A stretch of 64,000 bases of DNA from Podarcis pityusensis (lineage: Eukaryota), in assembly GCA_964106645.2 (NCBI GenBank), contig OZ067041.1. The stretch is one strand, 5' to 3'. Under the pieces are notes generated by a model. That model did not search any database, had not been told where the DNA came from, and saw only the letters and a list, made by a program, of their open reading frames with translations. The translations under genes were made by a program, and so were the position numbers. The stretch's first letter is position 1. Every line of letters starts with the position of its first letter. Positions 39,082-44,300 of the stretch are shown here, piece after piece.

Positions 39082-39180
39082 CTGAAAGGGGGAAAATTAT
39101 AAAGAAATGACAATCCATTTATTTATTGACTAGTGTACATCAATACAGTTGTTTACTTGGCTGAAAATTTAGCAGCTGTG

Positions 39181-41329
39181 GACTTCCGGGGTGGCGCCAT
39201 CGGCAATGGTGGACTCCCTCTGAACAGGAGGGACTAGCTCCGCGGGAAACGGGTCTTCTCCGCTACGGCGAAGTGGGGACCCTTTTAAAAATCACAGGTG
39301 GATGAAGCCTGTGACCATGGGACTCGGCGGGCACCTTTAGCGCCCCCCCCAACTCGCTAAGGAACCCACTAACGGGCTCCGAAGTGAAGAGGGGGAAGTG
39401 GCGCGGTGCTGTGAGTCAATTGCTATTTCCGTGGAGCAAAGCTGCACAGCCGTTGCCGGAGAGTGCTGCCTTTTTCCTGGGACAATTTGGACTCTAAAAT
39501 AAGCACCCGTGAGTACTTAGACTTTGAACAACTGGACATTAGATAAGGACTTGCGAGCAGAAAGGAATTGGATTTTAAAAACCTATTTTAATTTGGTACG
39601 GAACAGGAAGGTCTAAACAGGAAGTCAGCCTTCCGTTCTTCTGTAGACAGAATAAAGCAAAGACAACGTAAACTAGAGCTTAGAAAATCGCCTTTAAAGG
39701 ATTGGATTTCATCATTTAAAATTGTGGAACCCCCCTTCGACAGCAGGAGAAGGAGGGGGATCTTTTCTGGACTGTTTAAAGTGAGTTTAAAGTAAAGTAA
39801 CTTTCCTCCGTCCTGATCCTGGAGCGGGGTGTCAGGACTGACATTTGAAGTTCATTGACCAGAGACAAGCATTTTGACAGATAGCTAAAAGAAGAGAAAC
39901 ATAGCGATTCCACTGCTTCCCTTCGCATCTTTAAGCAACAAATATTGACAAAGTATCTCAAAAAGGGAAATTTTGTTGCAAGAACAAATAGAAGTTTTCC
40001 CCCTAGAGGGAGACTGTGTAACTGTAACTAACTCCAGAGAGCCGGCAGCTGTTACAGATAACAATCGTGGGAACAGGCATTCGACCTTGCAGGACAATGT
40101 ATTCAGAAGCTTTGTTGTGTGCTTTCTATAAAACAAATGCCCTACTGGAACAATTACATGAAAAGGTGAATTGGATGGCGACTTCGACTAGAAATTTTCA
40201 ACAGGCAGTGGGAAATTTTGAACAGACAGTGGGAAAATATGTGGAGCCCACTCAGGAATTAAATCAGGAGTGTGTCCTGACAGAACAGGCCCAACAGGAA
40301 TATGAGTTTTTGGATTTGATAAATGAACTTGGAAAAAGCCAGATTTGGAAAGAAAAAGTTTGGTTTGGCTTGGAAATGGGGGGCTGGATTGACCCCCCTA
40401 TGCTGGGATGTTTGGACTTTTCAAATCTGACAATGGGCCGTGAGATGTTTGGGATTGGGGGGGCTCTTAATTTCAGAGGGTCTTTGAAACATGCTTTTAA
40501 ATACCATATGGAACTCAGTGTTGAATATGGAAAAGGGGCTGATCTGTCGAGAAGGGTTAAAAATATTGCCAAGCTGGAGTTACCACGAGCAGGAGACAAG
40601 GGAAAATACAGTTACAAATATGAAGAAGAGCTGCGGAAGGGACATGGAAGAGACTTGAAGGCCTCGGATATAAGGCTGCCAGGTTAATGGGCTAGATTGA
40701 TGGGATAATAAGGACTGACAAAACCCGGAACCAGGAGGAAGGGACGTTGGATGAAGATTGGATTTGTTTGTATTTCCTCTTTCTACCATTAGAACTGTTT
40801 TATAAAATTGATGAATGTTAGAAAAATGTTGGAATGAAACTACTTGGCTTTAGTAAAGATGTTTAAAGAATTATGAAAGAATATTATGGTTATGAGAAGT
40901 TGATAAGGATAAGATTTAAGTTTTAAGCTTTAAGGTTTATTTTATTATAGAAAGATAAGATTAAAACAGTTTAGGGTAATGTAATGACAGAATATTGTGA
41001 AATATGGAAAGGATTTGCTGGGATAATTAATAACTAGGATACAAAGAAAGGGAGGAGGAGGAGGTCAAAGAAAGAAGGTAATGACAGTTGAGGATATGAG
41101 AATAATGAATTTGTTTTTAAATGTTTTTTAATTGTGTGTGATGTATTTTTGTATTTTTTTTCTTTTTGTCACTTTTTCTTATTTTTGAATTTGTATTCAT
41201 ACGGTTGGAAGGGGTTTGTTTTCTTTTCTTTTTCTACTTTGTTAATTATTTTTATTTTGTATTTTCTACTGCTTTTATTTTATTTGGTAACACTTTGAAA
41301 ATTTCAATAAATATCTTATATAAAAAAAA
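39181..41329 (+). mobile_element. Full-length 2.15-kb non-autonomous L1-type retroelement (HAL1-like) with single ORF
   Basis: 18-bp TSD gaaaatttagcagctgtg (39163-39180) / gaaaatttagaagctgtg (41330-41347); CpG-rich 5' end gacttccgg; AATAAA 41306-41311; A8 tail 41322-41329. Confidence 0.88.
40097..40687 (+). CDS. 196-aa ORF of the 2.15-kb retroelement (coiled-coil-like N-terminus, unknown C-domain)
   Basis: acaATG start; open to TAA; Q/E-rich heptad-like region; sits between a long 5' leader and an AT-rich 3' UTR. Confidence 0.55.
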   Translation: MYSEALLCAFYKTNALLEQLHEKVNWMATSTRNFQQAVGNFEQTVGKYVEPTQELNQECVLTEQAQQEYEFLDLINELGKSQIWKEKVWFGLEMGGWIDPPMLGCLDFSNLTMGREMFGIGGALNFRGSLKHAFKYHMELSVEYGKGADLSRRVKNIAKLELPRAGDKGKYSYKYEEELRKGHGRDLKASDIRLPG

Positions 41330-44300
41330 GAAAATTTAGAAGCTGTGCTCCAACCTTGCTCCCTCTTCCATGTAATGCTGTTTGGACATATCCTTATCTC
41401 ATCCTTAGAAAGAGGATATGCACCATACATTGCTGTGCACTTGCTCCAAATGTGTGCATTCACACAGGCACAGGATACATGCTTGCATTCATTCATTCAA
41501 ATGACAAAAGCCCCATGCTTTCGAGAGCCTTTGGTTTCTAAAACTATAACTGGATTAAGATATTCCAAAGTGGTGGAATTTCAAGAGTGGTGTTGCTAAC
41601 AGAGACACACTGGCTTTTGGAACTCTTGGGTTGGTGTCCATTCTTGCACTTCTTAAACACCGAACACAAAGAGATTTTTGGAGAGTGGCGTTGCTGACCT
41701 GGCTGCTTTCTGAATTCCAGGACATATCTTGCTGAGATAAGCTTAGTCTTATGACTTGTAAACTCCCGCTTTGGATTTCTGTGCTCCTCCTCATCTACTG
41801 ATCCTTGACTGGCAAAATCTTGACTGAGGAGAACTGCCTCCCTTTTGAACTTTCCCTGATGCACAGGAACCTTGCCGTTGTTAGCTTTCCACTGCACCAC
41901 TTCAATGCCCCTCCTTTCCCTTGAACTCTAAAGCATCACAGCCTTCTGGACATTGCAGTCATCTCAATTCTTATCCTCCCTCTACCTTTCTTTTCTCTGA
42001 GAAAGCCTTCAATGTATAATTTCCCAAGTACCTTACAAGGACATCCCAGTATCTAGACTAATTCCTTAACTGACACACTCTGACCTGTGCATTTTTGTAA
42101 ATGTCTCCAAACCCAGCTCTACCAGATGGATAGTGACCTCTCTTCCAGCTGAATAATGCCAGGCAGAAAAAGGACTGCACTAGACCTAGCCTCCCTCTTG
42201 TGTTTGAGAAGGGCTTATTCCTGAACACAGGAAAGCATTTTTGGATTTACGTACCCCAAGTAAACAGGGCAAAATATTATTTTGGGCTCAATAAGTCCTT
42301 TTGGCTAAGACATTCTAATAAAAAATAAGCAAACATTTCTCAAGGGGCTAAGAAACACAACATTGTATTTATAATAAAATCAGCAATGTCACAATCCTGT
42401 CTACTGATTTAAAATCAAAACTGGGGATTGCTAACCCCTGCCCTGGAAAATGGATTAGGTGTCCACACTAATTGTTCTGTCCTTGCTAGACACCACAGAG
42501 TTTGGGGGCAGCGGCAGCAAAAGGGAAATTAAAACAGACACAGAGCTGGTTGGGCAGAGAGGTTTAAATATCTTCACTCAGCCGAGGGCCCTGGAGATGT
42601 TTAATTACACAGAAAGAACTTGGGAAGTTCAAAAAGTAGTCTGTTTATCTTAAGATGGTTTTTATGGTCCTACAAAAAAAAAAAATGTTGAAGGAAAGAA
42701 ATGTCATGGGCATTAATGAGCCTGGCAAAATTACTAAGCCTCTCTAATATCTATAATACATACTAAGTAGAAGATGTATTCTTAAATAATGAAGACCCAA
42801 GTTTTAGAATAAAGTATAATTTTATGCTGAACACCTCACCAGGCAATGTATCTTTTATTCTTTGTCTAACAAGATATATTAACAGCTGTCTAGGTACAGA
42901 TGGCTTGAAAGAAGCACTTACAGGATCAGCTATTATAATTATAATGATACCATTAAATCTAATGATAATTTGACTACTCTGTGTGGAACAGATCTTCCTC
43001 TATAATATTGCTTCATGCATCCTCTTATACTATGCTATTAGATATACTAATCATACAGCGGCAGAATAAGCATTCAATGGAGAAAGGTTGAGAGCTACAT
43101 ATTTAAAGAAAGAAGCCTCACTCTGGACTGTCTGCCCTAATAACCTTCAAATGTCAAGTCACAAGGTGGTGGGGCAAAGCTCTGTTTTTAGTACTTCGGG
43201 GGTTGCTGCTGAAGATCAGTATGCTTAGCTGTACAACAGGCAGCTTGTGTATCTGTTTCAAAATAATTTGTTTTCTCTAAGAGAAGTTGAGAAGTACCAG
43301 TGAATTAATGTGTTTAAATATTCCATAATTGCAAGGGGTCCAAATAAGAAAACTTTTTTGGGGGGGGAGGGCATGGAAAAAGAGAGAAATAAACTTGGTT
43401 TTCTATTTCATGTTATTGATTAGTGGACTTTAACATCAAAGAACATCCAGTCACCTGGGTTCTTAGGAAAACTGTCACCACATAGAGAGAGCAATACAAT
43501 GGATATGTATGGGTAGGAGGGGGACAATCTGTGAGTCGCAAAGCTGCCACTACTTCCTATGTCCTGCTGGTTAGCTGCGGCCAGGGTGGGAGGAGATATT
43601 GTATCCTCTGGGTCTCTCCACTCCTAAATTGATTGCAATAGGAGGGGATTAATTACGCCTGCTCTGAGTTGGTATAATTAGGGGACCCGTCTGGGACTAT
43701 GGTGGGGGAATGAAGGGGCTTAGGATCCAGCAGATCCACTGTATCCCCACCTGGAGTGCCCTGTTTTCACCCCCCAATGGGACATGACCACCAGGTGGAG
43801 TTTTCTATTGCTGCACCAGGGGACCTATGGTGATGGACTTCTGGGCACTGGAGAGATACATCAGCAGCATCTTGCTGTGCCTCAGCCACCTTCCCTTGGA
43901 GCACAGGATTGTTCTCACAGTTTATTAACTGAATTACTCCCCCCACCCCCATTTTCTAGGACAGAGTAAGATATGTGTCAGGACATTCTTTTTTTGTTCT
44001 CATATGCCAAATGCACAAGATCACACCCTTGTATGTGGCACTAAACAGAAAAACTACAACTCCCGAGTGACATATTAATAATCATTTACACAGCAGACTC
44101 ATAATTCACCTACCTGTGTCATACTCTTGACATGAAGTAGATCTATCTATGGCTGCCAAGTGTTTGTGAAGGGCAGTAAGCTAAAGTTCTAATGATATTG
44201 TAGTTACCATTGTTACCAGCTACTGTTGCTACTGCTGTTTAATCACTGCTGAGGATAACACAGTAATAAGGGATATTCTAGGTACGTGCATTTGATTCTA

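Follow-up and report, generated by a model that had tools for sequence, protein, structure and literature searches.

A HAL1-type (half-L1) retroelement family of the lizard Podarcis pityusensis, derived from the host L1 by internal deletion and with selection on its ORF1p coiled coil

HAL1 (half-L1) elements of mammals are non-autonomous derivatives of L1 that encode only an ORF1-derived protein (PMC5753468, PMC5786205, PMC13756887, PMC8535693). They consist of L1 5' and 3' parts and often keep the promoter. There is no settled explanation for the retention of ORF1 by half-L1s; multimerisation with the protein of an autonomous partner is, in the passages cited, proposed rather than shown for HAL1 (PMC5786205). 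The same has been proposed for HeT-A and Ag-Sponge, which also have one ORF1/Gag-type protein and no reverse transcriptase (RT) but belong to the Jockey and CR1 clades and not to L1 (PMC5786205). Here we describe an element of HAL1 type in a stretch of 64,000 nucleotides (the window) of contig OZ067041.1 of the lacertid lizard Podarcis pityusensis (GenBank assembly GCA_964106645.2). It arose from the lizard's own L1 by internal deletion: between the 5' untranslated region (UTR) and the 3' UTR of L1 it retains a shortened ORF1 followed by the final ~140 nt of ORF2.

Compared to the mammalian elements, the lizard element comes from a lacertid, its ORF1p lacks the N-terminus, part of the RNA recognition motif (RRM) and part of the C-terminal domain (CTD), and many lineages that co-exist stem from a single junction; the mammalian proteins were compared by their descriptions. 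Unlike HeT-A and Ag-Sponge, no telomere or site specificity was seen for the half-L1 copies, which are scattered across most large contigs. The parent L1 resembles anole L1 clade 1 (about 6.2 kb, a CpG-rich 5' UTR of ~0.95 kb and almost no inter-ORF spacer) and was placed there by anatomy only (PMC5381506). For truncated ORF1p and L1TD1, likewise coiled-coil ORF1p derivatives, interference with ORF1p trimers has been shown or proposed, but they represent dead loci or a host gene (PMC5605252, PMC4161310), whereas the lizard protein is selected in a mobile element. A lizard HAL1 was not found in the available parts of the literature on HAL1 and lizard elements, where consensus files in supplements could hold the family. 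The interest of the system lies in selection in cis that can be mapped on an ORF1p without part of its RNA-binding domains, together with a repeated origin. The features of the element are as follows.

39163..39180, plus strand: 5' target-site duplication (repeat comparison; empty site in run X9)
39181..40096, plus strand: L1-derived 5' UTR with CpG-rich start, GACTTCCGG...GCGCCAT...AATGG (match to L1 copy L146, start motif)
40097..40687, plus strand: ORF1p remnant of 196 aa with the coiled coil, the beginning of the RRM and a partial CTD (open reading frame, profile alignment, selection)
40097..40243, plus strand: predicted N-terminal helix, residues 1-49, coiled coil (AlphaFold2 prediction; omega 0.33)
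40660..40690, plus strand: ORF1/ORF2 deletion junction (lineage representatives, genome pattern matches)
40682..40821, plus strand: decayed last ~140 nt of L1 ORF2, out of frame (match to L146; junction read-out)
40822..41321, plus strand: L1-derived 3' UTR with G-rich and T-rich tracts and AATAAA at 41306-41311 (sequence; L1 matches)
41322..41329, plus strand: remnant of the poly(A) tail, A8 (sequence)
41330..41347, plus strand: 3' target-site duplication (repeat comparison)

The element is 2,149 nt long and is flanked by an 18-bp target-site duplication (TSD), GAAAATTTAG(C/A)AGCTGTG, present at 39163-39180 and 41330-41347 with 17/18 positions identical. Its 5' end, gacttccgg, begins at 39181, and the CpG observed/expected ratio of its first 200 nt is 0.74 vs 0.19 for the window. 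The leader ahead of the open reading frame (ORF) measures 916 nt and likely contains an internal Pol II promoter. A preliminary description, made from the letters of the window, had already noted the duplication, the CpG-rich start, a leader of about 0.9 kb, the intact ORF, a T-rich 3' end with AATAAA and an A tail, and had taken the whole for an RT-less, protein-coding, non-autonomous element, citing HAL1 as the known parallel; all of this was borne out. The empty site was found in a related organism (organism C), of which a contig from run X9 joins 39162 to 41330, skipping 2,167 nt that correspond to the element plus one TSD. The filled 5' junction is crossed by a contig of another DNA run, X8. 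Runs X1 and X5, presumed to be RNA, contain short contigs that are mostly 90-95% alike, and were set aside. The window element is a recent copy of a half-L1 family.

As a parent reference, 20 L1 loci were fetched; the L1 copy L157 has an intact ORF2 of 1,246 aa with RT and endonuclease domains. Positions 1-739 of the element matched L1 copy L146 with 67% identity over 768 columns (E 1e-82) and positions 1503-2006 matched L146 5733-6199 with 64% identity over 524 columns (E 3e-36), and the 5' start motif of the element is also present in autonomous L1 copies. ORF1 and ORF2 are fused out of frame, the ORF2 piece supplying the stop codon. The junction ended in GGY TRA in 16/16 lineage representatives, preceded by CCN in 15/16. 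In a midpoint-rooted tree, in which one L1 row formed a long branch, a branch with full support separated 35 half-L1 proteins from 8 L1 ORF1p. Because of the shared junction and this branch, one origin of the family is the simplest reading of the sequences; a tree of the 5' UTR did not resolve the base. A processed pseudogene of a host gene, which the preliminary description had named as one of the ways in which it could be wrong, was rejected, since the sequence maps on L1 and forms nested subfamilies. The traits of HAL1 found here are 5' and 3' parts of the host L1, an ORF1p-derived protein, the lack of RT, amplification as a unit and a selected ORF.

A DNA search of the genome yielded 6,157 candidates. 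The 40 that were scored were all 94-100% identical, 39 covering nearly the full 2,149 nt; the ORF was intact in 34 and interrupted by a stop in six. Among 30 fetched copies, 27 had a TSD of at least 13 bp according to a script, two had none and one had 6 bp. The structure is thus more than a product of chance. The ORF1/ORF2 junction pattern had at least 2,960 exact matches in the genome (control pattern 0) and a pattern from the 3' (ORF2) part of the parent L1 at least 4,366, other deletion derivatives included; these lower bounds are not strictly comparable. A read depth of thousands of times that of the flank was rejected as a measure of copy number. With three distant homologues as queries, further lineages of 1.9-2.25 kb were found in the same genome; wherever their ends could be located the layout was the same, and their proteins were 24-78% identical to that of the window copy.

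The preliminary description had seen a coiled-coil-like N-terminal half, in agreement with the helix predicted below, and had recognised no L1 ORF1p RRM or CTD in the C-terminal half. The latter did not hold: the family profile aligned to the profile of lizard L1 ORF1p over 213 columns (HH probability 99.7, E 8e-27), with two internal deletions. The doubt had arisen because Pfam finds nothing for the window protein and no Transposase_22 in lizard L1 ORF1p, although the latter resembles human ORF1p both in profile (E 1.4e-5) and in fold. The half-L1 protein starts at an internal methionine of ORF1, L157 residue 47, and ends at L157 residue 322 plus one glycine, with the end motif RDL(R/K)ASDIRLPG. 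In between, 42 residues are deleted from the RRM (L157 200-241, spanning three predicted strands and a helix) and 17 from the CTD (about L157 283-299). The canonical domain set of L1 ORF1p is therefore not complete, the coil being kept and the RRM and CTD being partial.

Several features suggest that the half-L1 protein has lost RNA binding. The basic N-terminal ~47 residues of ORF1p are gone, and net charge was -15 to +2 in 11 HAL1 proteins vs +6 to +12 in three L1 ORF1p. In 17/17 aligned proteins the arginine that corresponds to the human ARREWG motif, and which we take to be R261 of human ORF1p, was missing; a WEFPQ-like motif persists as LE(F/L)PR. AlphaFold2 predicted a confident helix for residues 2-49 (pLDDT 65-91 in this block), whereas residues 50-188 scored below 50 (mean pLDDT 47). 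The absent fold beyond residue 49 is weak evidence because the alignment was shallow (17 sequences). A 2A-like reading of the C-terminal end was dropped, its spacing being unlike that of the 2A consensus.

Selection was investigated in 40 copies picked by DNA similarity, with singletons taken as mostly post-insertion changes and shared variants as mostly inherited from source elements. The 107 singleton changes gave an omega (dN/dS) of 0.91 (p 0.67), or 0.89 without CpG sites, and the 39 shared variants an omega of 0.41 (p 0.014), or 0.32 without CpG sites (p 0.005). Neutral singletons combined with constrained shared variants are the pattern expected if the product aids its own mRNA. Reportedly, Bao and Jurka (2010) named an ORF kept by selection during transposition as a trait of HAL1. 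Between lineages, omega was 0.49-0.50 (p 3e-10 to 3e-11; 5 and 6 pairs), compared to 0.80-1.55 for the five alternative frames. Purifying selection acts on the source elements and is clearest in the N-terminal coiled coil, where the first 40 columns had an omega of 0.33 (p 2e-6). The RRM remnant was not distinguishable from neutral (omega 0.74, p 0.22), and the CTD remnant and the C-terminal end had omega values of 0.40 and 0.30. For the parent L1, two pairs of single copies gave an omega of 0.21 for ORF1 overall and 0.18 for the RRM; the stretch equivalent to the C-terminal end, only 42 codons, had 0.75.

Two other approaches to selection were not retained. A first neutral control, comparing copies to the family majority, gave omega values of 0.37-0.50 and looked like a model artefact. 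This control was misleading because it counted shared variants repeatedly and because protein score had been used to choose families B and C; the apparent artefact was resolved by the singleton test. An indel test (multiples of three in 9/15 ORF indels vs 17/117 UTR indels) was circular because the ORFs had been chosen open, and was not used.

A second half-L1 family was present among 20 sampled L1 3' ends, two of which belonged to it (L243 and L248) and one to another deletion product (L234). This family is about 2.4 kb long, with at least 40 scored copies, TSDs and breakpoints that differ from those of the window family (loci L243:4707-7010, i.e. G000:C1:2632256-2634559, and L254-L267). Its ORF of 269 aa, present in 9/15 fetched copies, is an in-frame fusion of the ORF1 coiled coil with part of ORF2 (about residues 750-880 of L157 ORF2). 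It keeps the coil without any RRM or CTD, and in the coil 19 shared variants had an omega of 0.32 (p 0.037). The second family has an independent origin, and both families keep the coil and have lost all or part of the RRM and CTD. Together they form a natural deletion series in which selection can be mapped by domain. The other product, at L234:4828-6694, joins the L1 5' UTR and ORF1 coil to the C-terminus of ORF2.

We consider it somewhat probable that the half-L1, which derives from the lizard's own L1 clade and encodes only a shortened ORF1p, is copied in trans by the L1 ORF2p and uses its coil as a tether that takes its own mRNA into L1 ORF1p trimers. The TSDs, the poly(A), the common 3' end and the occurrence of ORF2-intact L1 in the genome all point to mobilisation in trans. 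Following established L1 biology, the mRNA would be transcribed from the L1 5' UTR promoter; upon translation, the nascent half-L1 coil would join L1 ORF1p trimers, carrying the mRNA into L1 particles and to ORF2p, which would reverse-transcribe it from the poly(A) tail. Distinct ORF1p coils, in that case human variants, heterotrimerise only on co-expression (PMC10588031). A complex of two L1 coils and one HAL1 chain was predicted with a score of 0.45, the best of three controls scoring 0.00; the runs agreed in at least 78% of contacts and partner pLDDT was 61-64. In a benchmark of this score the mark was reached by 51/78 solved and 2/108 mismatched pairs, but only 5/78 solved pairs, as against all four mismatches that passed, did so with a value of at most 0.60. 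The prediction weakly supports co-assembly with L1 ORF1p.

More tentatively, lizard L1s may have been parasitised repeatedly and over long periods by minimal elements that need only a coil tether without RNA-binding function, inserted into ORF1p trimers during translation and thereby defeating cis preference. If true, such tether parasites would offer a natural setting in which to test how cis preference operates and whether they drive the evolution of the ORF1p coiled coil.

A number of points argue against the tether. The complex score is weak, was obtained without alignments and may reflect likeness to a solved ORF1p trimer or to a cousin. Hybrid ORF1p trimers are expected to be inert, and a proteome-wide study cited in the same paper saw no co-translational assembly across mRNAs (PMC10588031); puncta of co-expressed ORF1p mix little (PMC10202459). 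Selection on the half-L1 ORF is about half as strong as on L1 ORF1, and 6/22 lineage pairs, which have lineages in common, did not differ from an omega of 1 at p 0.05 (including G-J 1.02, D-G 0.80 and B-J 0.67). The constraint on the CTD remnant and the C-terminal end is unexplained by a tether consisting of the coil only. At the C-terminal end, moreover, four-fold sites differed in 9/56 cases vs 61/143 elsewhere (p 5e-4, non-independent pairs); since synonymous sites are conserved as well, the constraint there may be at the RNA level or due to recombination. Finally, singletons in the ORF2-derived part of the second family had an omega of 0.41, which is unexplained.

The constrained CTD remnant and C-terminal end, and the surviving LE(F/L)PR motif, are what would be expected of a classical HAL1, whose protein forms homotrimers, uses a remodelled C-terminal half to bind or chaperone its own RNA, and recruits ORF2p as a normal ORF1p does. 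Human ORF1p with the R261A change also still brings RNA into condensates (PMC10202459). We nevertheless regard this as unlikely: the RRM core is deleted and its remnant is near neutral, the basic N-terminus is gone and the proteins are neutral to acidic, the ARREWG-aligned arginine is absent throughout, no confident fold was predicted past residue 49 (with the shallow alignment mentioned above), and the second family manages without RRM or CTD altogether.

Less probable still is that translation as such is what counts, with an open frame up to the conserved junction holding the mRNA on ribosomes, or keeping it stable close to ORF2p, the amino acids being largely incidental and the C-terminal end acting as an RNA signal or pausing peptide. 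The frame indeed stays open while proteins diverge to 24-30% identity, the stop position is identical in 16/16 representatives and synonymous sites of the C-terminal end are conserved. However, the coil combines an omega of 0.33 with high synonymous divergence, so that selection at the protein level is needed. A hairpin over the stop codon was 96% paired but had no two-sided changes and no significant stability (z -1.5 to +0.7), the L146 control not being on the equivalent stretch. At 40655-40690 of the window, even deep lineages hardly differ at the synonymous positions of the final codons (GCC TCG, CCA, GGT).

Quite improbable is a dominant-negative protein that mainly poisons L1 ORF1p trimers, freeing ORF2p for half-L1 RNA or limiting L1 damage to the host: a truncated human ORF1p (N-terminus and coiled coil) does suppress L1 in trans (PMC5605252) and the promoter is kept in 31/40 sampled HAL1 copies, but selection is on source lineages and not on inserted copies, the singletons being neutral, and a diffusible poison, from which frame-broken copies would benefit as well, would provide no maintenance of an intact ORF in cis.

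The completeness of copies was determined on contig C1 in position order, using 40 of the first 42 matches and omitting two that had been sampled previously. The 5' end was kept by 31 of these 40 half-L1 copies and an ORF of at least 185 aa was found in 20. For L1, at least 2 kb was retained at 6/20 3' ends, or 7/21 when the full-length L157 is included (p 0.002). Selection against long L1 insertions could contribute to this contrast. Between copies L076 and L080 the ORFs are 97.5% identical while the first 300 nt are merely 80% identical; this mismatch suggests promoter exchange between half-L1 copies.

The family is large and mostly full length, and in Podarcis lilfordi its ORF has been annotated as a host 'hypothetical protein'; the annotation of both repeats and genes in lacertids is therefore affected. 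Proteins related to the window ORF appeared solely under that name in P. lilfordi or as unnamed, and one such relative annotated in P. lilfordi matched two loci of the present genome at 100%.

Four locally duplicated copies (L161-L164, G000:C2:125.62-125.71 Mb) share their flanks and all have intact ORFs. They form a sublineage with 78-82% protein identity to the window family. The branch of this sublineage carries 25 nonsynonymous and 16 synonymous codon changes, and the sublineage may represent either a minor source lineage or a copy that was retained. Locus L095 was rejected as an L1 with three ORFs; the half-L1 at L095:1679-3584 is inserted in an older L1, close to the end of its ORF1, and has a TSD of 17 bp.

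The window element lies in an intron of, and antisense to, a gene whose exons include LDLa-like, CUB and trypsin-like sequence (minus strand, window 63132, 37076-36597 and 17885; CUB was called by Pfam, the other two by eye). This gene is presumably enteropeptidase-like. At 34145-32871 (minus strand) the window contains a stop-free stretch of 425 codons with no Pfam match, probably a piece of another repeat. The 38-Mb contig C19 carries a large share of the L1 ORF1 matches listed; repeat accumulation is typical of a W-like chromosome, and the density on C19 fits that expectation.

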